64,000 nucleotides of DNA from a virus (Duplodnaviria; Caudoviricetes), in IMG/VR virus record IMGVR_UViG_3300012983_000031, positions 32,001-96,000 of that record. One strand, written 5' to 3'. Made by a program: the position numbers and the translations under genes. Each line of letters begins with the position of its first letter. The first letter of the stretch is position 1. Of this stretch, positions 1 through 52,938 are shown in pieces. The notes beneath the pieces are model-generated. The model saw only the letters and a program-made list of their open reading frames with translations, ran no database searches and was not told where the DNA came from.

Positions 1-2077
1 TAACAGTAATTTCATAATGTCTGGAATATTTCGACACTAAGGTATCCATTTCTTCAGTAACCTCCTTTAAATACATATCGCTGTAATCATTATAAATTAC
101 ATAAAGCATATGCTCAAGGGTATTCTTGCCAAGTTTATTAGCAAAAGGTTTAATGTTACCAGAATACTCCATACCAGAAACATCTGTAATAATTATAATT
201 GCATTGATATCATATCTTAAATCATCATCTTCAACATAATTTTCAACAATATGCTTATATACATCATGAATATTTGTTCCACCGCCTGTAGATGCACCTT
301 CTATACCCCATTCTTCATCGCTCACAACATAAGAATCAACATCAAAATGTTCATTATATACACCATCATCGAACAAATGTATATCAACGGTGTTAAAATG
401 ACAATCTTGCATGATTTTTTCTATTTCTCCAATCATTATTGGAATAAGTTGTGTCTGTGAATTATTTATAGAGCCAGAAGTATCAATATAAACAACGCAT
501 TTATTATAATCACTATATGATCTAACCCTATGCTTCAATCCTATTCCAGTTCTTTGATAAACATTCTTTCTAAGAGGACCCTTTTCATATGTATGAGATC
601 TCTCTGAAATAAATTCCTGAAGAGCTTTCTTCCAATCTATAATACCTTCACGGCTCCTTCTAATACGACCTTGTATTTTATCCCTCATTGTATTAGCGGA
701 AGACACAAGTTCTTTATCATCTTGCGGAGATGGCTTAAATATATCATTAATTATTGGAAATGCCTCTCTTATCATTGCATCCTCACTTTCACTCATACCC
801 CAATCTGGATCTTTTGGATTGATTCCACGTTCTTTACGAATTTCATCACCAACATTTTGATCAATAACATGGGCACCTGTAAATAATTCATCCGTATCTA
901 TAGATCCATTACGCATAATAATTACATCATCTGGAACATAAACATCTTTTACACTATCTTGCTTGTCTGTTAATTGATCAGTTGATGTACCAAAAAACAA
1001 ATCATGAATTTTATTTACACGCTTATCATCATCCAACGAAACATCATCAATAATATTAGCAATATCATCATCAAGAGATTCATTGACACTTTCAATTATT
1101 TTCATAACATCAAGATTATCAGGAAGTTCAACTTGATCTCTCATAATTGGGGCTAAACCACCATGATCGTACATTTCTTGTGCATATTTTTTTCCAAGAA
1201 TATATCCGATAGAATATTCATCAAGTTGAGGCATATTAGCATTCTGACCCTGCTGACCCTGCTGACCCTGCTGACCCTGCTGACCCTGCTGTCCTTGCTG
1301 TCCTTGCTGTCCTTGCTGACCCTGCTGACCCTGCTGACCCTGCTGTCCCTGCTGACCCTGCTGTCCTTGCTGACCCTGCTGTCCTTGCTGACCCTGCTGA
1401 CCTTGCTGACCCTGCTGTCCTTGCTGTCCTTGCTGTCCTTGCTGACCCTGCTGACCTTGCTGACCCTGCTGACCCTGCTGACCCTGCTGTCCCTGCTGTC
1501 CTTGCTGACCCTGCTGACCCTGCTGTCCCTGCTGTCCTTGCTGACCCTGCTGACCCTGCTGTCCTTGCTGACCCTGCTGTCCTTGCTGACCCTGCTGACC
1601 CTGCTGTCCTTGCTGACCCTGCTGTCCTTGCTGACCCTGCTGTCCTTGCTGACCCTGCTGACCTTGCTGACCCTGCTGACCCTGCTGACCCTGCTGACCC
1701 TGCTGTCCTTGCTGACCCTGCTGTCCTTGCTGACCCTGCTGACCATGCTGTCCTTGCTGACCTTGCTGACCCTGCTGATTTTTTAAATCATTATGCTTCG
1801 CGCTATGAACATTTTGTCCACTAGCATTTTGATCTAACTCACCTTGCTGGTTAGTTTGTCCTTGATGATTTCCAGAACCACCATCTAAATTATCATCACC
1901 ATCAGATGATGAACCATAAACTCCGTTTCCAGCACCACCAGCATCTTTCTTCTCAGAATCTGTTATACCAGAATTTGTAGAGTTATAAAGATCCTTAATC
2001 TTTTTAATTTTCTCTTGTTTTGTAAGAGTTTTATCTTTTAACAACCGATTTATCTCAGTCTTTACATCATAACGCAT
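1..2077 (-). CDS. vWA-domain protein (C-terminal half of DUF2201-type) with a (QQG)59 linker; 3' end runs off the window
   Basis: Absent from the ORF track because there is no stop in the window. Hand translation from ATG 2077 gives MRYDVKTEINRLLKD...KNQQGQQG...IIDWKKALQEFIS...CVVYIDTSGSI...GGGTNI...IIITD. It has the MIDAS DxSxS, GGGT and ITD motifs of a vWA domain and lies directly behind the metallopeptidase and AAA genes. Confidence 0.9.
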   Translation of the reverse strand, partial: MRYDVKTEINRLLKDKTLTKQEKIKKIKDLYNSTNSGITDSEKKDAGGAGNGVYGSSSDGDDNLDGGSGNHQGQTNQQGELDQNASGQNVHSAKHNDLKNQQGQQGQQGQHGQQGQQGQQGQQGQQGQQGQQGQQGQQGQQGQQGQQGQQGQQGQQGQQGQQGQQGQQGQQGQQGQQGQQGQQGQQGQQGQQGQQGQQGQQGQQGQQGQQGQQGQQGQQGQQGQQGQQGQQGQQGQQGQQGQQGQQGQQGQQGQQGQQGQQGQQGQQGQQGQQGQQGQNANMPQLDEYSIGYILGKKYAQEMYDHGGLAPIMRDQVELPDNLDVMKIIESVNESLDDDIANIIDDVSLDDDKRVNKIHDLFFGTSTDQLTDKQDSVKDVYVPDDVIIMRNGSIDTDELFTGAHVIDQNVGDEIRKERGINPKDPDWGMSESEDAMIREAFPIINDIFKPSPQDDKELVSSANTMRDKIQGRIRRSREGIIDWKKALQEFISERSHTYEKGPLRKNVYQRTGIGLKHRVRSYSDYNKCVVYIDTSGSINNSQTQLIPIMIGEIEKIMQDCHFNTVDIHLFDDGVYNEHFDVDSYVVSDEEWGIEGASTGGGTNIHDVYKHIVENYVEDDDLRYDINAIIIITDVSGMEYSGNIKPFANKLGKNTLEHMLYVIYNDYSDMYLKEVTEEMDTLVSKYSRHYEITV
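1244..1777 (-). repeat. 9-bp tandem repeat CAG-CA(G/A)-GG(T/A), 59 units, encoding QQG (one QHG)
   Basis: 1247-1777 is 531 nt = 59 units, in frame with the vWA ORF. Variation is almost entirely at synonymous third positions of that frame. Confidence 0.95.
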
Positions 2078-2763
2078 TTTTCAACAAGACTTTCTTTTCG
2101 TAATTGATTAATAACTTCTGCAAAACCATCTGAAAAACCACGTTTCCATTCATCTGATGTCTTTGCAAGCTTTTTCTTGCGAACGATTTTTGGAATCTTA
2201 TCGTATATTTCTTCCCATGTCAACCCTTTTTTTCCATAATCATCATTATAACATCCATCGATAGCATTAGTAACACCCTTAAACGGAGAGTTTCCAGGAC
2301 CTTGTCTTAAAAAATTCTCAATTGTATAATTTATTTCATAATCCTGAGCCATATTAACTTTTTCAGAATCAGAATATTTATCAAGGCTTTCAGAATGTTT
2401 ATTACAATGATCAAACAAAATATGAAGTGCCTCATGAATAAGAACAAATTCCAAATATAACGGTCCTTTTTCCTCATCTTTATTGATTAAATATTCAGCA
2501 AACGCTGGATTAATAAAAATAGAAACACCATCAGTTGCCATTGTTGGAACATATGGACTATCTGTGTACACAATATCTTTATGCTTCATTATTCTTTCAA
2601 CGCTTGGAAAATATTGAGCAAGATCTTGCATAACGGCTTCAACTACCATAACAACAGTATCTATATCAACAACTGTACCGTCACTTTTTACCCAAATAGG
2701 ATTTCCAGTCTGAGATTCATTCAGACTGGAACCACATTTAGATTTATATTTAAGTATTAACAT
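2062..2763 (-). CDS. HEXXH metallopeptidase-like protein (DUF2201 N-terminal-like)
   Basis: Motifs VPTMATDG..IFINP.F, FVLIHEALH..FDH and NMAQDYEIN. Start moved to ATG 2763, just after the AAA stop; the track start at 2823 overlaps the AAA gene. Confidence 0.85.
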   Translation of the reverse strand: MLILKYKSKCGSSLNESQTGNPIWVKSDGTVVDIDTVVMVVEAVMQDLAQYFPSVERIMKHKDIVYTDSPYVPTMATDGVSIFINPAFAEYLINKDEEKGPLYLEFVLIHEALHILFDHCNKHSESLDKYSDSEKVNMAQDYEINYTIENFLRQGPGNSPFKGVTNAIDGCYNDDYGKKGLTWEEIYDKIPKIVRKKKLAKTSDEWKRGFSDGFAEVINQLRKESLVEKCVMM

Positions 2764-2767
2764 GTCA

Positions 2768-4786
2768 TCAAACCAATTCGTTTTTAGCAATAACATCTTC
2801 TTTATAGTTTGCTGCGTCAGCATAAGGTCCAGTTGTTGACTTCAAATCAACCCCAAACTCAAACCCGAACATTGTGCTTAAGGTTTTAAACCTATTTAAA
2901 TTAAATTGTCCAGAATCATAACAGCAAGCTTCCAAAAATTTCATAAAGTTAACAGCGGCATCTGGTGAAACCTTATCCTTTAACCCACCAGGATAATATT
3001 CCTTTAACAATGGAAATATATGTTTTGTAAAATATTCCTCAATGTTAGACGAATTCAATTTCTGCTGTTTTATAATTTCATATTTTGTATTATCACCCTT
3101 TGTCCATACATTAATTGCATCTTCTGGTTTGAATAAAGCAAATTGCGAAACAAATTGAGCAAAACGTTTTGCAACATCTCCACCAACAATACCAGAAGCA
3201 ATTTCTGCTAATGTCTTTGTTGGCATAGAAGAAATTGTTGAATATTTTTTTCCAAATTCATTTTCAAGACACTGATCAATAAGAGTTTCTGACAAAGCTT
3301 CCCAAGTACGAGGGTTAGCCGTTCCTTTCTCTCCATTTAATTCACCTGTTGGGTGTGTCCACATTTCATAAAAGTCTCCATAATTTTGAGGATCCCTTTT
3401 AATTTCACTTTCAATATAAGAAACTATATCGCTTAAAACATTTTTTCTTCCGCGTCTATGATTTGATTCCTGTCTTGCCCATTCTATCCAATCTTTTGGA
3501 TCTGGAACAAAATTACAATGGTTAAAACGAGTCTTTGATGCACCTTCAAATGACAATGCTTCCGCACCACCTCTACGACTCATATCTGATTTACGGTTTG
3601 CTGCACAAACAATAACCCATCGATCACCAAACTTTAATGTCGAATTTGAGCCAATTTCTCGTGTTGTTGGAGCTTGCATAAGAGCATCCATACCAGCTTG
3701 TGTCATACGAGAATATTCATCGATAAAGAAAATACCACCAGGACCGTTTTCTATAATATCATTTCCATTCTCATCTCTTACAAGTCCACCGCCGTTGGCT
3801 ATAGCATTCAAAAGTGCAGGATCTGCTTCCTCACTCTGCGGATTATAAACAGGCAACCAATTTTTTGGAAGATCCTTTATTGTTGTTTGTGTTGCGCCTT
3901 TAAAATCATCATTATCAGCATCCTCTATATCATTTGCCTTAAGTGTTCTAACAATCGTCGCTGGCATTGTGAAATCATCTGGTCCAACATTTCCTCCATT
4001 AATTGATATAATATTAATTGATTTTCCTGTTGTTTTCTGAACAACGCTTCTCAATGAACGAATAATAGATGTTTTTCCAATACCTGGAGCTCCCCATATA
4101 AACAACGGAAGTCCATTTGGTTTATTACCTTTATATCTACTCATGTATTCATTTCCGAGATAATTAACGATTTGTTCTGTTGTCCAATTGCAAAATGTTC
4201 CTTTTAAACTGATTTTTTCATTCTTTGCAAGGAAAGAATTCTCATCTTCAAATATAGCATCAATCAAGCTTGATGAAGTTTTTTCAGATTCATTTACATC
4301 ATCACCAAACTGAACAGCACCTTCATATGTGCCTGTAAATTCATAATTTTCAACAGCTTCTGGCTCAATTCCCAATTCATTACAAAGTTCTACAGTATCA
4401 CTTCCAGGAACATAATTCACACATGTTGTGTTTTTTGCACCCTCCATTGCATTAATAGGATGACTCGCTTCCAAAACATTTCCATCTTGATTCTTAAAAA
4501 ATACAAAATTTTCTGCTGTAAAAACATCAACAAAAAACTTCTTAACCTTTTCAGCAACATCCTTAACTTTACTTATAAATCTTTGTCCGTACTTGTTAAC
4601 ATTTTTTGCAGCATCCCTAACATAATCCAAAACACCTTCATCAATGTTGTCAAGATTGCTCACACGATTCTTTGGTACATTCTGAATAACACCGTTGTTA
4701 AAACGAACTATATAATCACCAGCGCTTTCGTTAAGAACCTCGCAATTAACTTTGTGATTACTATTTTTTAATTTATATTTTGCCAT
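2768..4786 (-). CDS. MoxR-type AAA+ ATPase with ~200-aa N-terminal extension
   Basis: Walker A GAPGIGKT, Walker B IFFIDE, sensor-1 CAANR, arginine finger KTRF and sensor-2 NPRTWE. Adjacent to the metallopeptidase and vWA genes. Confidence 0.9.
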   Translation of the reverse strand: MAKYKLKNSNHKVNCEVLNESAGDYIVRFNNGVIQNVPKNRVSNLDNIDEGVLDYVRDAAKNVNKYGQRFISKVKDVAEKVKKFFVDVFTAENFVFFKNQDGNVLEASHPINAMEGAKNTTCVNYVPGSDTVELCNELGIEPEAVENYEFTGTYEGAVQFGDDVNESEKTSSSLIDAIFEDENSFLAKNEKISLKGTFCNWTTEQIVNYLGNEYMSRYKGNKPNGLPLFIWGAPGIGKTSIIRSLRSVVQKTTGKSINIISINGGNVGPDDFTMPATIVRTLKANDIEDADNDDFKGATQTTIKDLPKNWLPVYNPQSEEADPALLNAIANGGGLVRDENGNDIIENGPGGIFFIDEYSRMTQAGMDALMQAPTTREIGSNSTLKFGDRWVIVCAANRKSDMSRRGGAEALSFEGASKTRFNHCNFVPDPKDWIEWARQESNHRRGRKNVLSDIVSYIESEIKRDPQNYGDFYEMWTHPTGELNGEKGTANPRTWEALSETLIDQCLENEFGKKYSTISSMPTKTLAEIASGIVGGDVAKRFAQFVSQFALFKPEDAINVWTKGDNTKYEIIKQQKLNSSNIEEYFTKHIFPLLKEYYPGGLKDKVSPDAAVNFMKFLEACCYDSGQFNLNRFKTLSTMFGFEFGVDLKSTTGPYADAANYKEDVIAKNELV

Positions 4787-4816
4787 TTTTATATATTTTA
4801 GTTTTATTTTTCAATT

Positions 4817-5641
4817 TTATGCGAACACCCACTTGAACAAGGCGTTACTTTTCATTAAACCTACAAGATTATCAATAAACATATCTTTTTCCTTTAATGA
4901 AAGTGACAGATGGCTCGCCGTAAGCAAATTGTAAACAAACGTCTTAAATTCATTTTCTTTATTGCCGCTATCCCATCCAATCTTATTCAAGTAAGCAACA
5001 ATGTTTCTTGCGAACGTCCTGCATCGCGTGTTATCAGGTGTATATGATAGATCATCAATCTGTTCAAAAGCAAGACATATTTCAGCGAACATCTCATCGG
5101 TCTTGTTGAGTACAGATTCAAACAGCTTCTTACTGAACCTTGCATTAATCTTTACCTGTTCATCTATACAATTAGGTGATATGTTTCCTCCGTTCGCCGC
5201 AATTTTCTGATTAATTCCCATAAGTTTTTGATCCAAGTTCTTTATATTCATCTGATATGTATTTTTTAACATAAGTTTTTTATTCAACAATGTGTTTATA
5301 AGCACATTGGACTGAATAATCTTATTCTTTGTTATATCAGCCTGTTCATCATTTTCTGGTGCGATGTCCTCCAAATCATTTCTTTGCTTTATAATTGCAG
5401 ACGTTTGATCGTTGACATATTTTAGATTTGTTTGATACTGTGTCTTCAGTTGCGTCTTTTTTGTCATAATATCAGATGCATCCTGTTGTAAATCTGTTAC
5501 ATCAGAACTATATGATCCAGATTGATCGCCATCTTCCTTATTTTGGATATCAGTCTTTATTTCCTGGCTTGCATTGGTATCTCCGTTGCCATCCTGGATT
5601 TCATCAGCTTCTTCTATTTTATCAATAAACTTAATTTTCAT
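4817..5641 (-). CDS. Hypothetical coiled-coil protein, first gene of the late AAA/vWA operon
   Basis: Start revised to ATG 5641 because the late promoter motif at 5668-5676 lies inside the longer track ORF. Central part has heptad-like periodicity. Confidence 0.7.
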   Translation of the reverse strand: MKIKFIDKIEEADEIQDGNGDTNASQEIKTDIQNKEDGDQSGSYSSDVTDLQQDASDIMTKKTQLKTQYQTNLKYVNDQTSAIIKQRNDLEDIAPENDEQADITKNKIIQSNVLINTLLNKKLMLKNTYQMNIKNLDQKLMGINQKIAANGGNISPNCIDEQVKINARFSKKLFESVLNKTDEMFAEICLAFEQIDDLSYTPDNTRCRTFARNIVAYLNKIGWDSGNKENEFKTFVYNLLTASHLSLSLKEKDMFIDNLVGLMKSNALFKWVFA

Positions 5642-5667
5642 ACAATATTCAAACAAACGCGTTTTCT

Positions 5668-5688
5668 TATTTATCTGAAAAATAAATA
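5668..5688. promoter_or_regulatory. Back-to-back late promoter motifs: AGATAAATA (- strand, 5668-5676) and AATAAATA (+ strand, 5681-5688)
   Basis: Match to the recurring late motif, each 20-30 nt upstream of divergent starts at 5641 and 5709. Confidence 0.65.
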
Positions 5689-5708: not shown

Positions 5709-5849
5709 ATGCGAAAATGCCCGAACTGCCCAAAAAAGAAAGCTCCAGCTTCATCAAATTACAATTTAATCAATGAAAGCAGAAGCACGAAGATTACCTC
5801 AATATTGAACAATCCTAAAATGTCAGGTTCCAAATCAATCACATTATAA
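5709..5849 (+). CDS. Small 46-aa CxxC protein (MRKCPNCPKKK...LINESRS...)
   Basis: Hand-translated and below the track cut-off. It fills the space between a late-type promoter and a terminator hairpin. Confidence 0.6.
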   Translation: MRKCPNCPKKKAPASSNYNLINESRSTKITSILNNPKMSGSKSITL

Positions 5850-5850
5850 T

Positions 5851-5890
5851 AATAAACGCCGCATATTTTGCGGCGATTATTGTCTTTTTT
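5851..5890. terminator. Probable bidirectional intrinsic terminator
   Basis: CGCCGCA-tattt-TGCGGCG stem extended by AATAA/TTATT with a T-run, located between convergent genes. Confidence 0.75.
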
Positions 5891-6717: not shown

Positions 6718-7164
6718 TTAAATGTTGTAAATATTATCTGACAAGGAAACCCTCATGCTTTGAGGAAGTTTCATATAACCTAGATTTCGCCATCCTTTCG
6801 CAAATCCGTTTCTGCATATTGAAGTTATATATGCAAATGCGTTCTGGGTAACATTCTCGTTAAAGTCTTTAAAATACTTAATACAATCCCCGACAGCTGT
6901 ATAAATACAATCTATTTTATCCTCTTCATTTGTGTATTTTAATTTGTTTGATAGTTTCGTTGCAATCTGAACAAACATTTTAGCGAGTTCATCGCTTGCC
7001 TTTCCGTCGTTTTCCCTTTTGCATCTCAATATTTCAGCAAGAAGAACCGAATTTTTTACATAATGCTGTTCTTCTGGAGTTCTTCCTACACTACTAAGTG
7101 TTTCATCTACAAATTCTTCCCCACGCTTCTGGCAGCGAAGCTTTTCCTGTAATTTTGTTGACAT
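6718..7164 (-). CDS. gp55: T4 gp55-like late-transcription sigma factor
   Basis: HYVKNSVLLAEI...LAKMFVQIATKLS...CIKYFKDFNE...NAFAYITSICRNGF follows the gp55 pattern (YVNNKELL...IAEGLS...NPHAYITQACFNAF). Confidence 0.85.
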   Translation of the reverse strand: MSTKLQEKLRCQKRGEEFVDETLSSVGRTPEEQHYVKNSVLLAEILRCKRENDGKASDELAKMFVQIATKLSNKLKYTNEEDKIDCIYTAVGDCIKYFKDFNENVTQNAFAYITSICRNGFAKGWRNLGYMKLPQSMRVSLSDNIYNI

Positions 7165-7704: not shown

Positions 7705-10700
7705 TTAAGAAAGTGCTGCAATAGCACTCTCCATTAAACGTTCTGTTTCTGGCTTAAAGAAATCTTCAGATTCATTAATCATCAAATTTCCACCATTGAT
7801 ATAGCTTAAATGAGTTTCACCGTTGTCAGCAAAGATAAGTGTACGAACTGGAATTGTGGATTCATTCATCATCACATAATTCGAAAAGTCGCGAACGTTA
7901 ACAAGAACATCTGTTTTCTGAACAACACCTTCAACAACGAACGTCATTGTACCAGGAGAATAGTTAGCAAGATCCATAACATCGTTCAAATCTTCATTAA
8001 TTCTAACATACTTCTTCGCAACCTTTGTTTTCTCCCCTTCTATAATAATATTAATTTCTGTATTGTCAGATGCTTTCATGTATTCAAGAAGTTGCACTTT
8101 GCAGTCATTTGGAGTCACCTGTGTATTATTAACATACATTCCACAGTTCACATAACTCTCATAAATTCCGCGAAGAGTTGCCTCATCATACTTGAAAGGT
8201 GTGTCGACGAGATCTGGTCTTGCATATATCACCTCTACTTCATTCTTTGGGTATATTCTGGTATGACCCTGCACATTCACTATAAAATCACCATCAGCTT
8301 GCTTGCTAATAATCTGACCTTTAAGCCCGTCCTTACATTTAACGTAGTCAAGAACATTTGGTTCAGCGATACCGATACCTGCATTTGATTCATTCAACGC
8401 ATTTCCATCTTTGTCGGCAACAGATTCGTTTGATGCTTTTTTAGATTTAACCTTAAACTTAAACTTCTTCTTTGGTTTTTCTTCACTTTTCTCATTATCA
8501 GCATCGCCTTTATCCTTCTCGTCACCAGTTTCCTCACCATTTTCATCTTCATCATCATTATCTTCCTCACCAGCAGCTTCATCGGAGATAGCAGCGTCAC
8601 CCTTTTCCTCGTTCTTCTTCTGATCCTCTTCTTCCTTCTTCTTATCCTCGTCTTTCTTTTCATCCTTATCATCATCGGCAGAATCTTCATCATCCTTAAA
8701 TGCAAGACTTTCCTCTGGATTAAATGTCACGTTCTTGAACGAATCCTCAAAATCTGGTGTAACAGCTTCATCTTCGCCGCCTCCTGCACTCTTTCCGTTA
8801 AGTTCATCAGTATTGATTGTCACAGTTTTACCAGTTGAATCATCTTTTACAGTGATGGTAACATTTTCATTCACATGCTTGAAAAAATCCCTTGCTTCAA
8901 TTGGTGCAGAATCGCCGTAGAAAGATTCAAGAATCTTTTTAACGTTGTTGAAATCATCCTTAACAATATCAAGGTTCATGTTTTCATTCACAACATTAAC
9001 ATCAAACCCTTTAGACGTAAGCTTTTGTTTTAGAAAATTATTATAAGGAACACTCAAATTATAACAGCATGCACTTTCAGCAAGCTTTCCATATTTCTTT
9101 CCATATGCATCAAGAACATCAACAACATCTTGCTCTACGTTGCCATTGTTCTTCCTTGCATACATATAAAGAGATTCATAAATCTTATAAGCTTCCTGCT
9201 CATTCTCCGCAACAACACTGAATTGTTCATAATTTCCATGATTCTTTATATTGAAAATCTTCGCAATAGATTCATTACATGGAAGAATTATACGAAAGGA
9301 AGAATCGCTAATAGGCTTAACACCTTTAATTTGAACACCTTCATTAGCAGACATCACATTGATATGAGCTGGCTTATTATCAAAGCACTTTCTTAATTCT
9401 GGGAAATCATCACTGAACTGATCATCTGTATAAGAGAACCATTTCTTGTAATACTTTCTCAAAGCATTAGCCTGTGCTCTATTTGTAATCTTCAAAATAA
9501 CTTCTGTTTCATTACTCTCGCTCTTTGAATGCTCGATCTTAAGTTCGTCATCAAGATCCTTTTCAAAATCCTCCATATCCATTGGTGCTATCTCATCTGG
9601 AAGAAGACCTACAGAAATAGGATAGTTTGGAGTTTCATCCTCTGCATCCTTTGTTTCTGCTGGAGATTCTTTTGCAGCGGCATCATCGGATTCAAGATCT
9701 TCCTTTTTAACTGGAACTTCATCCTTTGTTTCAGTTTCCTTGAAATCTGGTGTTTCTACTGTAACGGATGTTTCTTTTTCATCTCCAAACATTGCTGGAA
9801 ACTCATCAGACGTTTCTTCTCCTGGTGCTTTCAATTCATTGTTTTCAGGTTCAACAACTGTATCGCCGCCAACAACAGAATCTGGCTTATTAGGGTCATT
9901 TTCAATAGCATCAACGATTTCAGTATACATATCAAGAGGCATGTACTCGTTATTGATGATAGGTTTCTTATCAGCATCAAGATAGAAGCTAACCTTACGA
10001 GTGTCATCATGAACATCGCCATTAGCATCAACAGATGGAATTAAAAGAAGAACTTCACCCTTGCCATTTGTCTTTCCGCTCTTAACATTCTTATTATACG
10101 AAACCTTCACAATCTGGAATCTTCCATAACCGATATCCTTTGTTGATTGACCTTCTTCTGGTGTGTCACTAACAGTAACAGATGTAGGAACATCAAAATC
10201 TGGATCATATTCAGCAACATCATCAAACTCTGATGGGAAATCCATATCTGAATCATCTTCAATATCTACTTCCTCTTCTCCACCTTCTGCACCTGTTATC
10301 GGATTTTCCATATCTTCCTTTGATTCCTTGTCTGGATCAAGTTCATCACCCTTCTTGTCATCATCTTCGCCATTCTCTCCATCTTCTCCATCACCGCCGT
10401 CAACATCATCATTCTTGTCACCATCTTCATCTCCAGTATCTGGAAGATCGTCCTTAAGACTATCATCCTCATCATCCTCATCACCGTTCAAATACTTATC
10501 AGCATCATCCTGATATTTCTTAAAGTCTTTCTTGGTGTCCTCAAGTTCTTTATCGATCATATCAATGGCATCATCAATATCCTTTGTGTCTGCAGCTTCA
10601 TCCTTCATACTCATGAGTGTCTTCTTCTTCTCTTCAAGTGAATCGATATAATCCTGATATTCCTTCTTCTTAGTCTCAATATCATGCTCAATCTTCTCCT

Positions 10701-12417
10701 GTTCTGGTAATTCATCCTCGAACAATGGAGAGCAATTGATTTCCATATGCTCATTTATATAATTGCGGCATTGTATCGGATTCACATTACGATAGAACGT
10801 AGAACGTCCAAGATTGCTGTTCGTTGTGTTTACGAAAATACTTTCTTTAAGCTTAAACACATCGCAAGATTTTCCGCTATTATCCTTTGATTCAATTCTC
10901 TTAACGAAATCAATATAAGCAATATCGTTATAATGTTCATTAAGAGCAACAGACATAGCATAGAACTCTGCATCATTACTTCTCATATTAATTGCAGATT
11001 CCATAAGTGACTTAAGCTCGTCAGTCGTAACCTCCTTATCATTAAGCAAAATTTCAGATTCATTGATGACACACTTGTTCTCATTTCCGTAAATTGTGAC
11101 AGAATTAAATTCTTGAGAGAAGCGAACGTTATCATTGTTGACAATATTGCAAAGAGCCTTGAACGATTCGCTCAAAGATGCCACCTCATTCTTTGTCAGC
11201 TTGGAAATTTCATTATTCTTTCTTGCGAAGTAAGCACCCTTTACATTGAACACACATTCGTTCTCCTTGATGTACTTAACTGGAGAAAACACCAATTCTG
11301 TCTTAACTTTATTGTTGAGGTATTCAACAGATTCACCGAGATAAACAGTATTTTCAATAGAAAGATCTCTTGTAATCAAGCATTCCATATCACGAACGAA
11401 CGGATCATACTCGAATGCCTCAAGTCTTTGAAGAAGAATGGTTCGCGTTGCCATGTTCTTATTATCCACATAATCGGCAACAACATCTTCAATAAGAGGA
11501 ACGATGTAATAAGATCCAGTCTGAGACATAGTTTCAAGAATCTTCTTAAGACTAATGTCTTGCTTATAACGGTTAACCCTGTCATTCAGAGCTGACAGTT
11601 CAGTATCAACAGCACTAAGATAATTCCAATTGGATATACCAGATATGAATGACTCATAAAGAAGTTCATCTGGCTTTCCGTTATTAAGGGCGTTAATGTA
11701 TTGCTCACAGAACACCTTAAGCTTCTCATTCTTATTGTTCTTGAGTATTGCTGCGATTGACTCACTTAACTTGATGTGATTAGGAATGGAATTCTTTGTC
11801 TTCTTTACGGCATTCTGTTTCTCAGTTTCCATTTCATTCATCTTGTTTGCCAAAATCTTGTCAACCTCATCCTGTGTGTATGTTTTAACTGGTTCAGCCT
11901 TAAACTCTTCCTTGAGAATAACATTTTGAAGAGTCTTTCCAGATTTCTCCTCATATTGCTCGAACTGAAGAGCCTCAAGAATTTGCTGAACAAGCGAATC
12001 GCTCTCGAACAAAGAAAGGTTCAGCTTGACATTATCACGCGTCGTCGAGTTCTTGTCAATCATATAATCAACAACTGCGGACTCAATCATTGGAGCGACA
12101 AACATGCATGAGCTGTTGTCAAGATTATAAACGCAATTAGCCAACTTGATGTTGGTCTCATTCATTTTGACGGATTCGTTGACTTCCTTAAGAACAGCCT
12201 TTGCTGATTCTGTATTGGCAATCTTTGCCAAATCATTCACAAAAGCCTCGCATATCTGCTCCTCTTTCATTCCGTCATTCAATTTCTTACTGTACTCGTT
12301 GCAGAAATTCTGCACTGCAATAGATTCAGACTCAGAAACTTTAAGTTTCTCGATTGATGAACGAATCGGCACGATGTTCACCATTGCAAGAGTCTTTTTA
12401 GTATTTGACATTTCCAT
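7705..12417 (-). CDS. 1570-aa putative prohead core/scaffold or internal head protein
   Basis: Helical and coiled-coil regions, long acidic low-complexity tracts, at least 15 [ILVM]xE-S motifs resembling T4 gp21 cleavage sites, and a late-type AAATAAATA motif at 12460-12468. Confidence 0.55.
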   Translation of the reverse strand: MEMSNTKKTLAMVNIVPIRSSIEKLKVSESESIAVQNFCNEYSKKLNDGMKEEQICEAFVNDLAKIANTESAKAVLKEVNESVKMNETNIKLANCVYNLDNSSCMFVAPMIESAVVDYMIDKNSTTRDNVKLNLSLFESDSLVQQILEALQFEQYEEKSGKTLQNVILKEEFKAEPVKTYTQDEVDKILANKMNEMETEKQNAVKKTKNSIPNHIKLSESIAAILKNNKNEKLKVFCEQYINALNNGKPDELLYESFISGISNWNYLSAVDTELSALNDRVNRYKQDISLKKILETMSQTGSYYIVPLIEDVVADYVDNKNMATRTILLQRLEAFEYDPFVRDMECLITRDLSIENTVYLGESVEYLNNKVKTELVFSPVKYIKENECVFNVKGAYFARKNNEISKLTKNEVASLSESFKALCNIVNNDNVRFSQEFNSVTIYGNENKCVINESEILLNDKEVTTDELKSLMESAINMRSNDAEFYAMSVALNEHYNDIAYIDFVKRIESKDNSGKSCDVFKLKESIFVNTTNSNLGRSTFYRNVNPIQCRNYINEHMEINCSPLFEDELPEQEKIEHDIETKKKEYQDYIDSLEEKKKTLMSMKDEAADTKDIDDAIDMIDKELEDTKKDFKKYQDDADKYLNGDEDDEDDSLKDDLPDTGDEDGDKNDDVDGGDGEDGENGEDDDKKGDELDPDKESKEDMENPITGAEGGEEEVDIEDDSDMDFPSEFDDVAEYDPDFDVPTSVTVSDTPEEGQSTKDIGYGRFQIVKVSYNKNVKSGKTNGKGEVLLLIPSVDANGDVHDDTRKVSFYLDADKKPIINNEYMPLDMYTEIVDAIENDPNKPDSVVGGDTVVEPENNELKAPGEETSDEFPAMFGDEKETSVTVETPDFKETETKDEVPVKKEDLESDDAAAKESPAETKDAEDETPNYPISVGLLPDEIAPMDMEDFEKDLDDELKIEHSKSESNETEVILKITNRAQANALRKYYKKWFSYTDDQFSDDFPELRKCFDNKPAHINVMSANEGVQIKGVKPISDSSFRIILPCNESIAKIFNIKNHGNYEQFSVVAENEQEAYKIYESLYMYARKNNGNVEQDVVDVLDAYGKKYGKLAESACCYNLSVPYNNFLKQKLTSKGFDVNVVNENMNLDIVKDDFNNVKKILESFYGDSAPIEARDFFKHVNENVTITVKDDSTGKTVTINTDELNGKSAGGGEDEAVTPDFEDSFKNVTFNPEESLAFKDDEDSADDDKDEKKDEDKKKEEEDQKKNEEKGDAAISDEAAGEEDNDDEDENGEETGDEKDKGDADNEKSEEKPKKKFKFKVKSKKASNESVADKDGNALNESNAGIGIAEPNVLDYVKCKDGLKGQIISKQADGDFIVNVQGHTRIYPKNEVEVIYARPDLVDTPFKYDEATLRGIYESYVNCGMYVNNTQVTPNDCKVQLLEYMKASDNTEINIIIEGEKTKVAKKYVRINEDLNDVMDLANYSPGTMTFVVEGVVQKTDVLVNVRDFSNYVMMNESTIPVRTLIFADNGETHLSYINGGNLMINESEDFFKPETERLMESAIAALS

Positions 12418-46254: not shown

Positions 46255-49200
46255 CTATGTCCAATCGGTGTCTATTGAATCATCTTGACCGACTGAACTG
46301 TCTAATCCATTTTGACCTACCCATACATATCCATACCCTTGTGTTACGAATCCTTCCGATGCTGGTTGATCTGGTTTAACCCATGTAACATGTCTACATT
46401 CAAGTTCTACTACTTGTGGTAATAATGGTATAGTATAAAATAAAATGTTTCGAGTTGCAAACCCTTCATTATCGCGTGGGTCATCATAATAATATTTTCC
46501 TTGTGATATATAATTTACATCATTTAGACATAAATGATTAAGTTCAATCAAAACAGGACCAGTTATTTTGTTATAATATATATTATAATGATCAGTCATA
46601 TCACCTATTTTTATGATTATTCTTCGTCCTATAAGTTGTCTCATTTCATCTGCGGTCATAGGATGTGGTTCTCCAGTGTTAAATCTTGTGTGCCCCCTTT
46701 CATATGCTTTAGGACATACATAATAAGGTAATCTGTAATTTACCTCTGTTCCTAAGCCACCAGATAAATCTGGTAATGATTTTATGTATATAAAATCTCC
46801 ACACCTGAGAATATCAATATGATATTCTTTATCATAATCTTCTGGATCATCTCCAGGATCTAATTGATATTTTTCCTGCAACGAAGGATCTGACACACGA
46901 GGTATATATCGTGTTATAATTAATTCTCTATGTTGTTGATGTGGATCTGGATTATCCCAATCAATTATTGTTATAAGATTATTTTGGACACCAGTTATTG
47001 TAAAGTTACCGTATGCGTCCAACCATGCTGTTTTTTGTCCAGAGGTGTTTTGACATTCCCATGTATCTGCTGTATTGACTATTTTGTTGCTATATATGTC
47101 TATACCAGTATCAAGTAATCCTTGGCGTATTTCACCTAAGTTTGCATCAATCTCATCTATGTCTCCGCTTAAACCATCAATGTCATCACTTAGTAATCCG
47201 AGACTACCGTCAGTTATCAATCTGCTAGATTTTGCACCATCAAGACGTGTTGCGATTTCACCCATTTCAAGTTTAGCTCCAGCGTATGTGATATAGAAAT
47301 TTTTCTTTCCAGCTTTTATGACAATTTTAGGTTCCCATGAGAACCATATATATGGAGATGAAACTGTAAACGTCACAGCATATTGTGTATATGATCCAGC
47401 TACGCCCCTTTTTGTATCATTGTTTGCATAAAGAGGAATTTCTGCAGCATGTGTGTTTCCAGATGCTGTTTCATACATAATTACAGTAGCAATGAGGTAA
47501 GGACTTACAAGATTATCCGTAAGATTTATTCCAGCTATCCATACAGAGAACGTGTATTTCTTTCCAGCTGTTAATAATAATCTTGGCATGTTTGTTATAT
47601 TTGCAGGACAATTCTTTGTTACATTGGATGAAGACGTGTTTGCACTTATGTCAAATTTTATAAGTTGTCCTCCGTCTCCTTCCCATGGGGAATGATAATC
47701 CGTTGTTCCTCCAGAACTTGTAACTCTTGTGACTGCCGCTGTTACGCCAGATCCAGATGTTGGTTGGTTAAATGGTAGATTTGTTGCAAATATAGGATCT
47801 CTTAATATGTTTGCCGAGTCTGATGTCCCAACCTTCAATGATATTTGTGAAGACGTTTGTTCTACGTATGACACACGTTCGGATAATCCATTAGAGCCAT
47901 CTATTTCTGTTTTTAATTCCGCATAGTTGCGATTAGAAGATTGAATGTATGTACCAAGATTATCATGAACCGTATAATTTACACCATCAACTGTATATGT
48001 TGTTGATTCTGCAACAATTGTACGAACGTCACCGATGATATCTTCTTTCCATGTTCCCAAGAGGTTGCATGCGAAAGAGAACATAAAATCATATTGCACC
48101 GTAGCTATCGTCACTCTGAATGAAACATAACCGTTGTCATAATATGTACTGCCGTCGGCTTGTTTGTTGACGCTTGTTATCTTAATCGTGTTTCCGCCTT
48201 CTTTAACAGCTGTACAGTTATACTGTGAAAGTATACCTATTGTTGCTTCACTTGTTTTATCTTGTGTTCCTTTTACAACCTTTACTGTTGTTGTGTTGTT
48301 AGTGAGATTCAGAGGATAATTTCCGCCTGCGTCTGGAACTGTAGACTGTGTGAATATTGTTGCATATCTTGACACTATCACAGTGTATGCGTCTTCACCA
48401 GAACCACCCCAAAGCTCGACAGAATATTCATCTGTTCCATCTGAGTATCGTGTCCATGTCCAAAGATACCATCCAGGTGTTACTGTTGGCATAGTTGTAC
48501 TCCATTCTCCTGTTGGCGGTGTACTTGAGTTTACGCTAGTTTTTTGATATTTTATAAATGTTATGCTTAATGCAGCGCCTCCATTTGTTCCCCATTTTGA
48601 AACAGAGTATGAAATATTTCCATCTGAATATTCTACACGCGTCCATAGATACCATCCATCTGTTGCTGTTGGTATCGTGGTGCTCCATGTTCCTGTTGGT
48701 GGGGTGCTGGAATTTGAACTTGTCTTCTGATATGTTATTGATACAATCGTTACAGATGTTCCTGGGTTTCCAGTTTGACCATCGAATAAAATTGGAATTG
48801 TCTCAGTATCAAGAAGTATTGGTGTTTCGCTTTTATCGTATAATGAGAATACAATATTTGTTGACACATCTCTTACAAGTGGTGGTACAGATGAATTAAA
48901 TATTACTTCAGGTTCACCATTAAGAGAATATTTTAATGTATATTCAGATGGATCTGGTGTGATATTTTCACCTCCATTGTTTTTATAGACTTCACATGTT
49001 ATTGGAGTAAATGCAGATGGATAATATGTTCCATCCGTAGATCTTTTTATAGAAGATGTTGTCGGAATTAAACCATATACGCATGAATTTTTCACACAAT
49101 TTACAGTTAAATAAAGAAGTCTAGATACTGATGTACCAGTTTCTGTTGACGTTATTCTAATACAGAAAATTTGTTTAGTTTTTGTAAACGTATATGAACC

Positions 49201-52200
49201 AAATCTAATACGTATTGATCCCTTTTCAATCCCAGATATAGTTCTGTTGTCATCATACCAAAACGCACGGAGACCGTCTGCTGATAATGATCCATTTGGA
49301 TATTGATAACCACCAAGGCTTGTGTCAAAAATTTCAATTATAAAATCGTTTATTTGTCGGTTACCTTCCCATAATGATGCTTTTGTACTTATAAGTACAT
49401 CTCCTATTGGTTTTCCGTTGTTATCACACAATAAAGAATCCATTTCGTTGTCAAGGTCAGCAATATATGGAGATGTTCCAGGCATTCCTTGTTCACCTTG
49501 TTCACCATCGTATACAATAGGAATCGTTTCCTTATCCATTAATATTGGTGTTGAGCTCTTATCGTATAAAAGGTACACTATATTACTTGTAACTTGCGAA
49601 ACAAGTGGTGGGCTTGATGGATTGAATTCAGTTTCAGCACCGCCATTGAGAGAATATTTTAATGTATATTCTGATGATGATGCGAAAGACTGTATTCCTC
49701 CATCATTTTTAACCACATCACATGTCACTGGAGTACTTTCTGGTGGATAATATGTTAATCCAGATTTCTTTATTGACGATGTGCTCGGAACAAGACTGAA
49801 AATACATGAAGATCGAACCCCGTTAATTGTAAAATAAAGATATTGCTCTATTAGAACACCAGAGATTGTCTTTGACACTTTAATGCATAATACTCTTGAA
49901 CCTTCAATGACAAGATTTCTTGTTGCGCCGATTAAAACTCTTGTAGAAAGCCATGCAACTCTAAGCCCTCTGATTGTTTCACCGTTTGTATAAGGTTGAC
50001 CGCCAGTACTTGTATCATAAACATTAATTGTGTATCCAGTTATGGCTTCGCTTCCTTTCCAAAATGATATATTTGTGGAAAATGATTTATATGACATGTT
50101 TTTTCCATTATGATCACATTCCAGTGATTCCATTTCGTTGTCAAGGTCAGCAAAGTACGGTGATGTTCCTGGTTCTCCCTTTGAACCATCAAGACCATCA
50201 TATATTACTGGAACATTTTCTTTATCAACCACCGTTCCAGATAAATCAGTACGTATTTCAAATCTAAATTCACGACTTGCCGCACTTATCAATGGTGGAT
50301 ACAAATAATTATATGTAGCAAAAGATGATATATCATCTCTTGTGTAATATAATGTCATTCCATCAAAAGATCCTGTTGGCTCAAAGTATGAAACTGTTCC
50401 ACCATCATTTTTTTTGATTCTGCATCTCATTGGTTCACTATTTGATGGATAGTATGTTCCATCTGAAAGTCTTTTGATTGATGACATGCTTGGTGCTATG
50501 TTGTATGTTGCAGTTGATTGTATTGCATTCACTGTAAAATACAGGTAGCGAACTACACTTGTTCCATTATCGTTGCATGTAATTTTTATGCAGAATATTT
50601 GTTTTTCAATTACAGTTGCATTTGTAAGGAAATTGCAACTTATGTTTGCATTGTTTGATGTGATTGTCCATGAAACAATTATACCATTTACGTTTGTGCC
50701 GTTTGGATAAACTGTTCCTCCTGCGCTTGTGTCCCTTATTTCAACAGACGATATTGGCAAATCATTGCTTCCTTTCCATGCAGAAGCAACGGTTGTAACA
50801 ATATTTTCAGGCTGGAATGGATGTCCTTCGCTGTTGCATGAAACAGAATCAATTTCATTGTCAAGGTCAGCAAAGTACGGTGATGCTCCTGGATCTCCCT
50901 TTAAACCATCGCGAATTCCGTTAACAATAAAATACAGTTCTCTTGTTATTGCTGTTCCTCCATCATTTATTGTTGCGACGATGCAGAATGTTTTCTTTCC
51001 GTCTATAACTGCAGTTGGCTGGAACACTACACGAATTTCTCCAGAAGCAGAGTTCCAATAAACCGTGATGTTATGTGACGCTTTACCATTTCTATATTCG
51101 TAACCTTGTGATGAATCGTTAAATATCCTTATACTCGATATTGCTATCTTTTCGCTTCCTCTCCAGAATGAAAGTGTTGTTTTAACTGGTTCGGTGCTCT
51201 TTGGGTGACCGTCAGATGTACATGCTATTGAATCCATCTCATTGTCAAGATAGGCAACGTAGTTCGAATCTCCGCTATCACCAGAACGAATAGCATTAAG
51301 CACATAATGAAGCGATTTTTCGCCGCTGTCACCACCTTTAAGAGTAATTCCTATATCGTTTACTTCTTCAAGTGTTGTTCCATCATCTACCTGAACGCGT
51401 ACAGTTTTTGCGAATCTGTTTGTTGTTACTTGTATTCCAGGGACATTTGTTGCTGTCAATTCGCTGATTTCTACATCTTTATCTCCTTGTGTTAAACTTA
51501 CTGAAAGTGTTTTATCAAATGATGTTTTTGTCACACCAGATGAATTACAAGCTACACTTCCCATTTCGTTTTCAATGCTTGCTGTATAAGCTCCGCCTCC
51601 TATCTTGATGTTGTTTATTTCTTCCATTGCGTTAATCGCCATCTGCTTAATCTCAGCATTTTCACGAACAACCTCATAGAGGGTTTTTGTATTTGACTTC
51701 ATTACTGTCACAGCATTTGACAGGTTTCTGATGACATCGGTAAAATCAACACTCATTTCGTGTGCAGGTGTTGAATTATCTTGAACAGTTATAGTTCCTG
51801 TGTATGCAGATGATGGCTTGATGTTAAGTCTGAAAGAATAAGATGTTCCGTCTTTGCTATCGCTTGTCTTCAGCTTGCGCAAAGATGGGAAATAATACTT
51901 TGTTGTATCATTTGAATTGTTATCTTCAGAAACAGCGTTATCTATAATGTAAATACCATATGCGTTTGTAGCGAGACATTTAGATTTGCTTGGATCATAT
52001 ATAGAATAGTACACAAGGATTGCGTTAAATGTATAATCACCAAGATCCTCGCTTTCGGCGAACTTTCCGATTGCAAGATCATCAAACGTAAGTGTATTGT
52101 TATTGTATTTGTTTCTGTATGTGTTGATGTCAAAGTCTATTACTATAGAATCCCAGTTTCTTGATTCTGTCTCTGTGTCGCTGCTCTTTCTGTTTATGAT

Positions 52201-52938
52201 GTTATACACGCCATATCTGTCTGTTCTTACAACATATTCATCAGCGTTCACGTTTGCGGCTATCCCAGTCGCCTTCACTACACCGTTTCCGTATTGATCT
52301 GTTTCTATTTCATCATCTGGAATGTTCTCTATCCAGTTTGGTGTTGTTGTCATATATGCACCAGGCATATAGTTCTCGTCAACATCCATTTTGTAGAAGA
52401 CTTTCATTTGACCGAATGACGATGGAATCTGCACAAATGTTTCGTTGTATATTCCGCTGTCATCGGTTCTTTGTGAACCTGCTGAAATCAAACCTACTCC
52501 TTTCACGACACTTGTGCTAGCATCCTCATAGTATCTGTTAACGACACTATCATAACGTAATTTCTTTGTCTGTATATGACTAAATAGCCATTTCCAGAAT
52601 ATTCTTTCTGAAACTGTCTTGTTTGATGAGAAATTGTAGCTTGAAAGATTTCTTAGAACAGTCTCAAAGTTAAGAATATAGTTCTGTATATTCTCAGCCA
52701 TGATCTTGTCACCAGCATTGCCAGTATAGTTGATGTTTTTTGTTACCAATAATTCTCCTGGCAAAGCCTCGCTGTATGCAAACTTAGGTATTTCTAACAA
52801 TGCATAATGCGAGAGCTCAATGATGTTATTGCTTTCATTTACATTCAAGCCAATATCTTCCATTGCTGATGCAAATGTATAGAATGTTCCACCCTGCTTT
52901 CTTGGTGCTATAAATGGAGTACGCAATTTCTTTGACAT
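46255..52938 (-). CDS. Long modular tail fibre/receptor-binding protein (2227 aa)
   Basis: ~445-aa N-terminal anchor shared with the neighbouring gene, five (L/I)(D/E)NEM.S..C...G modules, collagen-like linkers, two PPTG.WSTT.PT...GWYLWT repeats, and a CBM-like domain (LTAGKKYTFSVW...AKLEMGEIAT). Confidence 0.8.
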   Translation of the reverse strand: MSKKLRTPFIAPRKQGGTFYTFASAMEDIGLNVNESNNIIELSHYALLEIPKFAYSEALPGELLVTKNINYTGNAGDKIMAENIQNYILNFETVLRNLSSYNFSSNKTVSERIFWKWLFSHIQTKKLRYDSVVNRYYEDASTSVVKGVGLISAGSQRTDDSGIYNETFVQIPSSFGQMKVFYKMDVDENYMPGAYMTTTPNWIENIPDDEIETDQYGNGVVKATGIAANVNADEYVVRTDRYGVYNIINRKSSDTETESRNWDSIVIDFDINTYRNKYNNNTLTFDDLAIGKFAESEDLGDYTFNAILVYYSIYDPSKSKCLATNAYGIYIIDNAVSEDNNSNDTTKYYFPSLRKLKTSDSKDGTSYSFRLNIKPSSAYTGTITVQDNSTPAHEMSVDFTDVIRNLSNAVTVMKSNTKTLYEVVRENAEIKQMAINAMEEINNIKIGGGAYTASIENEMGSVACNSSGVTKTSFDKTLSVSLTQGDKDVEISELTATNVPGIQVTTNRFAKTVRVQVDDGTTLEEVNDIGITLKGGDSGEKSLHYVLNAIRSGDSGDSNYVAYLDNEMDSIACTSDGHPKSTEPVKTTLSFWRGSEKIAISSIRIFNDSSQGYEYRNGKASHNITVYWNSASGEIRVVFQPTAVIDGKKTFCIVATINDGGTAITRELYFIVNGIRDGLKGDPGASPYFADLDNEIDSVSCNSEGHPFQPENIVTTVASAWKGSNDLPISSVEIRDTSAGGTVYPNGTNVNGIIVSWTITSNNANISCNFLTNATVIEKQIFCIKITCNDNGTSVVRYLYFTVNAIQSTATYNIAPSMSSIKRLSDGTYYPSNSEPMRCRIKKNDGGTVSYFEPTGSFDGMTLYYTRDDISSFATYNYLYPPLISAASREFRFEIRTDLSGTVVDKENVPVIYDGLDGSKGEPGTSPYFADLDNEMESLECDHNGKNMSYKSFSTNISFWKGSEAITGYTINVYDTSTGGQPYTNGETIRGLRVAWLSTRVLIGATRNLVIEGSRVLCIKVSKTISGVLIEQYLYFTINGVRSSCIFSLVPSTSSIKKSGLTYYPPESTPVTCDVVKNDGGIQSFASSSEYTLKYSLNGGAETEFNPSSPPLVSQVTSNIVYLLYDKSSTPILMDKETIPIVYDGEQGEQGMPGTSPYIADLDNEMDSLLCDNNGKPIGDVLISTKASLWEGNRQINDFIIEIFDTSLGGYQYPNGSLSADGLRAFWYDDNRTISGIEKGSIRIRFGSYTFTKTKQIFCIRITSTETGTSVSRLLYLTVNCVKNSCVYGLIPTTSSIKRSTDGTYYPSAFTPITCEVYKNNGGENITPDPSEYTLKYSLNGEPEVIFNSSVPPLVRDVSTNIVFSLYDKSETPILLDTETIPILFDGQTGNPGTSVTIVSITYQKTSSNSSTPPTGTWSTTIPTATDGWYLWTRVEYSDGNISYSVSKWGTNGGAALSITFIKYQKTSVNSSTPPTGEWSTTMPTVTPGWYLWTWTRYSDGTDEYSVELWGGSGEDAYTVIVSRYATIFTQSTVPDAGGNYPLNLTNNTTTVKVVKGTQDKTSEATIGILSQYNCTAVKEGGNTIKITSVNKQADGSTYYDNGYVSFRVTIATVQYDFMFSFACNLLGTWKEDIIGDVRTIVAESTTYTVDGVNYTVHDNLGTYIQSSNRNYAELKTEIDGSNGLSERVSYVEQTSSQISLKVGTSDSANILRDPIFATNLPFNQPTSGSGVTAAVTRVTSSGGTTDYHSPWEGDGGQLIKFDISANTSSSNVTKNCPANITNMPRLLLTAGKKYTFSVWIAGINLTDNLVSPYLIATVIMYETASGNTHAAEIPLYANNDTKRGVAGSYTQYAVTFTVSSPYIWFSWEPKIVIKAGKKNFYITYAGAKLEMGEIATRLDGAKSSRLITDGSLGLLSDDIDGLSGDIDEIDANLGEIRQGLLDTGIDIYSNKIVNTADTWECQNTSGQKTAWLDAYGNFTITGVQNNLITIIDWDNPDPHQQHRELIITRYIPRVSDPSLQEKYQLDPGDDPEDYDKEYHIDILRCGDFIYIKSLPDLSGGLGTEVNYRLPYYVCPKAYERGHTRFNTGEPHPMTADEMRQLIGRRIIIKIGDMTDHYNIYYNKITGPVLIELNHLCLNDVNYISQGKYYYDDPRDNEGFATRNILFYTIPLLPQVVELECRHVTWVKPDQPASEGFVTQGYGYVWVGQNGLDSSVGQDDSIDTDWT

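Follow-up and report, generated by a model that had tools for sequence, protein, structure and literature searches.

Candidate prohead-targeting leaders and head-protease sites on a MoxR/metallopeptidase/vWA module of a giant rumen phage

The stretch of DNA considered here (the window, 64,000 nucleotides) represents bases 32001-96000 of the 220,295-bp IMG/VR virus record IMGVR_UViG_3300012983_000031, estimated by CheckV to be 60% complete and belonging to a giant rumen phage of the T4 superfamily. At the beginning of the window, the minus strand carries an operon encoding a coiled-coil protein, a MoxR-class AAA+ ATPase, a stand-alone DUF2201_N zincin, and a giant vWA/DUF2201 protein. The analysis, carried out entirely in silico and with heuristic gene calls, suggests that these four proteins are probably late precursors targeted to the prohead by their leaders and trimmed there by a gp21-type head protease, the enzymes being left whole and plausibly retained. 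Prohead targeting and trimming is considered the best reading because the module stands behind a late-type promoter, its proteins are enriched in a cleavage-like motif, the motif-bearing extensions are lineage-specific, and the motif coincides, in the capsid proteins of relatives, with the maturation site of the T4 capsid protein gp23.

Candidate Cleavage Sites in the Four Proteins

The genes of the operon are listed below from its 5' end; lengths are in amino acids (aa), and a slash marks a candidate scissile bond.

4817 to 5641, minus strand: gene 1, coiled-coil protein, 274 aa, with the leader MKIKFIDKIEE/A
2768 to 4786, minus strand: gene 2, MoxR-class AAA+ ATPase, 672 aa (phrog_1297, 3e-25)
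2062 to 2763, minus strand: gene 3, stand-alone DUF2201_N zincin, 233 aa, with HEALH and the leader MLILKYKSKCGSSLNE/S
1 to 2077, minus strand: gene 4, 5' two-fifths of the 1690-aa vWA/DUF2201 giant, which starts at 2077 and exits the window (whole gene G000:C1:29005-34077)

The candidate sites and the repeat next to one of them are as follows (phi, hydrophobic residue; MIDAS, metal-ion-dependent adhesion site; pLDDT, predicted local distance difference test).

4724 to 4738, minus strand: VLNES, AAA residues 17-21, in a predicted beta-strand; L18 nearly invariant, E20 invariant
4634 to 4645: IDE/G, second conserved phi-x-E/G of the AAA protein, residues 48-51, after the barrel
4286 to 4300, minus strand: DVNES, AAA residues 163-167, candidate cut in the disordered linker that precedes the AAA+ core (pLDDT ~25)
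2713 to 2727, minus strand: SLNES ending the zincin leader (homologue alignment, predicted model)
1243 to 1777, minus strand: QGQ (Gly-X-Y-like) repeat of ~180 aa in the pro-region of the giant (Pfam Collagen, 1.4e-26)
1076 to 1099, minus strand: IIESVNES, residues 327-334 of the giant, boundary site ~200 aa before the MIDAS (homologue conservation)

An earlier note on this DNA had pointed to [ILV]xE-S motifs outside the catalytic cores, and all of them are found where it placed them. The (I/L)xE motif it cited for T4 appears to operate here in a narrower form, i.e., phi-N-E followed by S, A, G, or D. A reading of N-E-S as an N-glycosylation sequon was also considered and dropped: the P1' residue varies (S/A/G/D/N) while phi and E do not, and the cut in T4 gp23 aligns with this site.

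The most uniform picture is that of the zincin (its start, the M at 2763, was set by homologue alignment), where a leader composed of M-x-[VI]-[IV]-K, a variable stretch, and phi-x-E before S/A/N/G/D is present in 47/47 homologues; in the three alignment rows that lack LNE, a phi-x-E-S has appeared a few residues upstream. The predicted model shows the leader as disordered. The coiled-coil protein, for which no Pfam or PHROG family was found, has 57 homologues at E<=0.001, and 48 of the 56 starting with Met possess a leader of 9-21 aa (mode 13) ending in phi-x-E before S/G/A/N/D/E, e.g., MIIIKKYKKVDE/D. The KLFES motif singled out earlier in this protein is indeed at its place but belongs to the conserved C-terminal domain, so the better candidate is the end of the leader.

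In the AAA protein, the column of the linker site holds a residue-E-S or phi-N-E-S in ~21/25 homologues, down to ~30% identity, in surroundings that are unalignable, and three relatives have gained an extra VLNES/ILNEG insertion. In the giant, the form (L/V)ES(L/M/V)NES before the vWA domain is kept in homologues down to ~44% identity. Further sites of the giant lie beyond the window: LNLNE/A at residue 717 and FINE/M near residue 944. The three boundary sites are kept to 35-45% identity, the post-vWA one as R(L/M)N(L/M/V)NE/A and the next, ~230 aa on, as Y(L/I)NE/A.

Motif frequency was compared with 1000 within-protein shuffles, a comparison named in the earlier note, and the four module proteins exceed expectation for both motifs. 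There are 8 occurrences of [ILV]xES against 2.2+/-1.45 expected (0/1000 shuffles reach 8), and 5 of phi-NE[SGAD] against 0.92 expected (1/1000 shuffles reach 5). Over the record, the excess is limited to a 44-kb stretch around the operon (21 vs 5.1; elsewhere 16 vs 14.9), a descriptive comparison only, since the bounds of the stretch were chosen after seeing the matches. Positional conservation is a stronger argument than the motif counts.

Coincidence with the Head-Protease Sites of Relatives

Head genes were surveyed in five relatives with the extended form of the module (two 94%-complete contigs of 345-364 kb, two others, and Lak-A1), and a gp23-type capsid protein together with a gp21-type prohead protease is encoded in 5/5. 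The capsid protein of T4, gp23, is cleaved after Glu65. In the capsid alignment (A3), L63-T64-E65/A66 of T4 gp23 pairs with ALNE/E, SLNE/S, and KLNE/D of the relatives, and only 14 columns are invariant, L63 and E65 among them. The protease open reading frames (ORFs) of the relatives (584-589 aa) begin with leaders ending in LTLNE/A or LRLNE/S, and RINE/S, YLNE/S, or RVNE/S follows directly after the protease domain; these flanking sites mirror the self-trimming of gp21 and of SPN3US gp245 (PMC9026906, PMC10052503). Given the capsid-site alignment and the motif-flanked protease domains, the gp21-type protease of this clade most likely cuts after phi-N-E.

Class Specificity of the Leaders

A scan of IMG/VR with the single AAA protein found nothing; a scan with the AAA profile gave 80 loci, which split into a short and an extended class. 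The short class combines an AAA protein of 330-376 aa with a fused peptidase-vWA protein of ~410-425 aa, without leader and without motif. The extended class is characterized by AAA proteins of at least 500 aa and HExxH proteins with leaders. Within these loci, 31/79 AAA and 21/72 HExxH proteins have the motif in their first 80 aa, as compared with 58/1113 other ORFs (Fisher p = 3e-17 and 8e-10, respectively). A gp21-type protease was detected in 13 extended-class records beyond the five relatives checked first and in no short-class record, a complete 107-kb one included, many of the records being fragments. Hence, the question raised earlier of whether the motif-bearing extensions are lineage-specific can be answered in the affirmative: they are missing from the short-class homologues (N4-like phages, which carry homologues, and AR9 and PA5oct, whose modules are leaderless), and all records found to have a gp21-type protease belong to the extended class. 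As a separate observation, gp029 of AR9 (DUF2201) carries an erroneous annotation as HNH endonuclease.

In some extended-class phages, several unrelated neighbor proteins share the leader of the AAA protein, MxKIKNFxDFxxINE/S; examples are MQKIKNFKDFCQINE/S, MKHIKLFENFLNE/D, and MKKIYNFKEFVNE/S. The leader of the T4 internal proteins IPII/IPIII, MKTYQEFIAE/A as read from the T4 record, closely resembles this shared leader.

A Late-Type Promoter

The elements relevant to the timing of expression are the following (nt, nucleotides).

5857 to 5875, minus strand: intrinsic terminator of the upstream gene and 5' boundary of the operon, a 7-bp G+C-rich stem followed by a T tract
5668 to 5676, minus strand: late-type promoter AGATAAATA, 26 nt upstream of the ATG of gene 1 (5641)
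6718 to 7164, minus strand: T4 gp55-type late sigma factor (phrog_234, 4.1e-18), ~1 kb upstream of the operon
60483 to 62285, plus strand: T4 gp20-type portal (PF07230, 2.1e-52), with a GATAAATA promoter at 60452

The element GATAAATA is present in 43 copies in the 220-kb record, 28 of them no more than 60 nt upstream of a start on the same strand; the promoter family has the consensus T(T/C)AGATAAATAGT, typically 20-27 nt ahead of the ATG. Its copies precede the portal gene as well as the genes for proteins of 2227, 1215, and 1276 aa in the tail-gene region, and one copy is found upstream of the tail sheath gene. No copy is listed ahead of the identified replication genes, NrdD having only the weaker TAATAAATA. 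The element is one base off its T4 counterpart, TATAAATA. Since this family stands before structural genes, differs from the T4 element by that one base, and is accompanied by a gp55 homologue, assignment of the operon promoter to the late class, with recognition by a gp55-type sigma factor, is a well-founded inference. The promoter that had been claimed to head a co-oriented coiled-coil/AAA+/HEXXH/vWA run is thus present, and its promoter family and the gp55 homologue support the late class. The start of gene 1 is at 5641 (274 aa) and not at 5710, as in the longest ORF (297 aa), since the latter start would swallow the promoter.

Domain Architecture of the Module

The AAA protein is laid out as a beta-barrel (residues 1-45), an alpha/beta domain (87-149), a disordered linker (150-182), and the AAA+ core with a helical domain (183-672). 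Its Walker A motif GAPGIGKT, the Walker B residues D356/E357, R398, and R420 are invariant in 25 AAA homologues; the family as a whole comprises 98 homologues with 84-27% identity. The Pfam AAA families remain below threshold (AAA_5, 17 bits vs the cut-off of 22), the family profile matched only the Walker A region of generic AAA+ proteins among PDB sequences, and MoxR membership is not established by sequence profiles alone. The AlphaFold2 model (mean pLDDT 76) gave its best Foldseek superpositions with NorQ (9qh8, 9qh4) and CbbQ2 (6l1q), at a target-normalized template modeling score (TM-score) of 0.53-0.57 and E ~1e-5; chains of MCM appear in the same list with a similar E but a TM-score of 0.15-0.18. 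The structure of NorQ has been solved in complex with its vWA partner NorD. Pairing of AAA and vWA proteins recurs in ~70 related loci, and here the vWA/DUF2201 gene is in the same operon.

The zincin is recognized by PF13203 (1.7e-7, 31.6 bits vs the cut-off of 23.2), and its HEALH motif and downstream His and Asp/Glu residues are invariant among homologues. A Foldseek search with its model returned no significant match, only a weak likeness to selecase-type minimal zincins. In the mRNA, a perfect 11-bp stem (TTCCAGTCTGA...TCAGACTGGAA, loop of 7; 2703-2731, minus strand) lies over the codons SSLNESQTGN of the zincin leader.

The giant is composed of a helical N-terminus, the QGQ tract, the vWA/DUF2201 domain, and then ~970 residues without a recognizable domain; its last 981 aa gave no useful Pfam or PHROGs match. 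Positions 201-357 of phrog_1314 match the vWA part (3.4e-12), PF09967 scores 20.6 bits, i.e., below its cut-off of 26.4, and the MIDAS motif DTSGS (DxSGS intact) is at residue 532. The length of the QGQ repeat ranges from 0 to 180 aa across 33 homologues of the giant.

The family phrog_1314, usually a fused peptidase-vWA protein, is split here into genes 3 and 4, whose ORFs share 16 nt at 2062-2077 (GAA AAA TGC GTT ATG ATG TAA / ATG CGT TAT GAT G). The stand-alone peptidase is conserved in 47 clusters, and the fused form occurs, with 1602 aa, in the distant relatives L006/L007. Slipping by -1 on the A5 run (GAAAAAT) would read ...LVEK-MRYDVK, joining the zincin and the giant; the overlap could therefore serve translational coupling or an occasional frameshift fusion.

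Related Systems

The operon is the already-described MoxR/metallopeptidase/vWA module in an elaborated late-type form. For group 2.2 jumbo phages, a role of this module in virion assembly and peptidolytic processing has been proposed (Iyer et al. 2021, PMC7824862, section 3.4.5). The module described there (DUF2201_N and DUF2201; PHROGs 1297 and 1314) has the same three domains, with the ATPase adjoining the peptidase/vWA gene, and comes from the same phage group, Lak-related and with a T4-type portal and gp55. Unlike it, the present operon has separate peptidase and vWA genes, a 1690-aa giant with a QGQ repeat, an added coiled-coil gene, and, in all four proteins, leaders or pro-regions ending in phi-N-E. 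Targeting leaders are not mentioned by Iyer et al., and a literature search found no paper describing them on a MoxR/peptidase/vWA module.

Capsid-targeting sequences (CTS) of T4 and the processing of its internal proteins by gp21 were reportedly described by Mullaney and Black in 1996. In T4, the CTS-bearing internal proteins IPI-III and Alt are processed by gp21 (PMC9026906). As in T4, where the leaders are removed by the gp21-family protease, the leaders discussed here are mostly short, N-terminal, and end in phi-x-E; the boundary of the delta-domain of the major capsid protein (MCP) obeys the same site logic, and the cargo proteins are otherwise unrelated to one another. Unlike in T4, P2 is almost always Asn, and the pro-regions include long ones (166 and 333 aa), such as giant phages have; the candidate cargo is an ATP-driven chaperone, a zincin, and a vWA adaptor instead of small basic proteins and an ADP-ribosyltransferase.

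The gp245 protease of SPN3US recognizes A-X-E and prefers Ser at P1' (PMC10052503, PMC5694885). Head and ejection proteins of phiKZ-like phages likewise bear N-terminal propeptides (20 to >250 aa) cut after Glu, and their protease trims itself. These phages represent a different lineage (no virion RNA polymerase was seen here) with a different P3/P2 preference, and no MoxR module has been reported among their head proteins. In the Acidianus two-tailed virus (ATV), the MoxR protein p618 is a major virion component with the vWA partner p892 (PMC4124505). The combination of a MoxR ATPase with a vWA partner is common to both systems. Unlike the present phage, ATV is an archaeal spindle virus without the peptidase, protease-cleaved leaders, or a T4-type head, and the role proposed for its proteins is in extracellular tail growth.

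Proposed Fate of the Proteins and Alternative Explanations

In the proposed course of events, the leaders would act like T4 capsid-targeting sequences and the precursors would join the prohead core. The prohead protease of the clade, with phi-N-E as its putative cleavage site, would then free the AAA+ enzyme (~S167-672), the zincin (~S17-233), the vWA domain (~S334-E717), and C-terminal fragments. The freed enzymes would most likely stay in the head, since they are left whole and not shredded like scaffold; retention of the mature proteins in the virion is plausible. The module could act during head maturation, as a chaperone-plus-protease on core proteins, or be ejected into the next host. 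The more ambitious version, in which a matured assembly of MoxR hexamer, vWA adaptor, and zincin is stored in the head, ejected with the DNA, and acts in the newly infected cell, is rather doubtful; such a machine might, for instance, refold co-ejected proteins or destroy host defense or housekeeping proteins. Thus, the suggestion that a protease-matured chaperone/peptidase machine is loaded into the head is upheld as far as prohead targeting and trimming are the best reading, but the support does not extend to head retention, injection, host takeover, or anti-defense.

A number of observations weigh against the proposed fate. Prohead targeting is no proof of retention: the core proteins of T4, too, undergo targeting and cleavage and are expelled. 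The protease specificity for this phage is inferred from relatives only, since no MCP, protease, or terminase was detected in the 60%-complete fragment (searching the 220-kb record with Pfam gp21, gp23, and Terminase_6C gave no match). Downstream of the operon there are replication and nucleotide-metabolism genes (NrdDG, DnaB, SbcCD) and no head genes. The VLNES motif of the AAA protein is conserved and at the place pointed out earlier, but the beta-strand in which it is predicted to lie belongs to the folded N-terminal barrel, so it could be structural rather than a cut site. In AR9, the short-class pair (gp028/gp029, L085, 21869-24586) has an annotated early promoter; hence, the family is not intrinsically a virion component, and the timing of module expression seemingly differs between phage lineages. 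Virion detections of homologues speak for the proposed reading as weak precedents, and the two known from phages concern leaderless proteins. The homologous AAA ATPase of the Staphylococcus jumbo phage DC4 was found in virions by liquid chromatography–mass spectrometry, with confirmation urged by the authors (PMC10638138), and the pair of ATPase and adjacent metallopeptidase genes is present in its close relative LY01; the GenBank entry of the PA5oct homologue (BLASTP 7e-10) bears the note 'ESI-MS/MS'.

The early promoter of AR9 and the downstream neighbors would also suit a cytoplasmic chaperone or processing enzyme of virion assembly that is never incorporated, its leaders being regulatory or zymogen-like pro-peptides or simply conserved N-termini. 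This explanation has a published proposal for the same module behind it (PMC7824862, section 3.4.5), and the short-class homologues do work without leaders. It is nevertheless judged unlikely, as it leaves unexplained why four unrelated proteins carry the motif found at the MCP maturation site and protease flanks of the relatives, why leaders are confined to the class whose records carry a gp21-type protease, and why the same leader recurs on unrelated neighbors. The virion-assembly role itself (Iyer et al. 2021) fits prohead targeting equally well.

Cutting of the phi-N-E sites by the zincin of the module, for self-activation or partner processing, and not by the prohead protease, is less probable still. 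It would agree with the invariant active site of the peptidase (HEALH, downstream His, Asp/Glu), with the suggestion of Iyer et al. that structural proteins undergo peptidolytic processing, and with the clustering of the motif in and around the operon. Yet short-class phages have the same peptidase family and partners without such motifs, and the motif fits the P3-P1 logic of the gp21-family proteases, whose cuts follow Glu, as they do at the aligned site of T4 gp23; the preference for Ser at P1' is shared by SPN3US gp245 (PMC10052503). Compositional chance in proteins rich in N, E, and S has been largely rejected. These residues each make up ~7% of the total, NES is only ~1.8x as frequent genome-wide as expected, and the rest of the genome is without excess (16 vs 14.9), but shuffles rarely or never reach the observed counts, and across families the sites keep their positions within variable regions.

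If the leaders are indeed capsid-targeting, an ATPase, a zinc protease, and a metal-binding adaptor are packed into the heads of a large clade of uncultured giant phages of gut, rumen, and freshwater; the range of cargo known from phage heads would become wider, and a module so far called only a 'chaperone pair' would acquire a testable function. If ejection were also true, a tailed phage would for the first time be credited with a chaperone/protease cargo, one common among Lak-related and other T4-type giant phages. With the proposed rule of phi-N-E before S/A/G/D, sequence alone could allow the head proteomes of uncultured megaphages to be predicted, and, like the T4 capsid-targeting sequence, the leaders might be used to direct foreign proteins into such capsids.

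The Phage and Further Motif-Bearing Proteins

Affiliation of the phage with the T4 superfamily is reflected by the gp4-like head-closure, gp2-like end-protector, and UvsX-like proteins it encodes. By the AAA protein, the nearest named phages are the Prevotella Lak megaphages (~26% identity), assigned to jumbo-phage 'group 2.2' (Iyer et al. 2021, PMC7824862); a megablast search of the region against phage records gave no match. Among public homologues, the one nearest to the AAA protein (84% identity) is assigned in NCBI to the rumen Firmicute Sharpea azabuensis, which represents either a mis-binned phage contig or a clue to the host.

Pfam and PHROGs searches of neighboring motif-rich proteins gave nothing useful. 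In a 1570-aa protein (7705-12417, minus strand) without a family match, helical, acidic-disordered, and beta segments are separated by phi-NE[SGAD] sites, seven in all (Poisson p near 0). A AATAAATA element of its own stands 42 nt upstream, and the protein resembles a polyprotein of scaffold or internal proteins that would belong to the putatively processed set. At G000:C1:4414-9455, i.e., 22.5-27.6 kb before the window, a late-promoter run encodes proteins of 1235 aa, 265 aa (SET-like, PF00856 sub-threshold), and 162 aa, each with phi-NE[SA] sites (AINES, FLNES, KVNES, DVNES), which are probably further members of that set. Finally, the giant paralogues of 2227 and 1215 aa (46255-52938 and 53064-56711, minus strand) are near-identical over their N-terminal ~50 aa, MSKKLRTP(F/L)IAPRKQG...IGLNVNES or ...VNDS, and each stands behind a TT(T/C)AGATAAATAGTACAAAT promoter.

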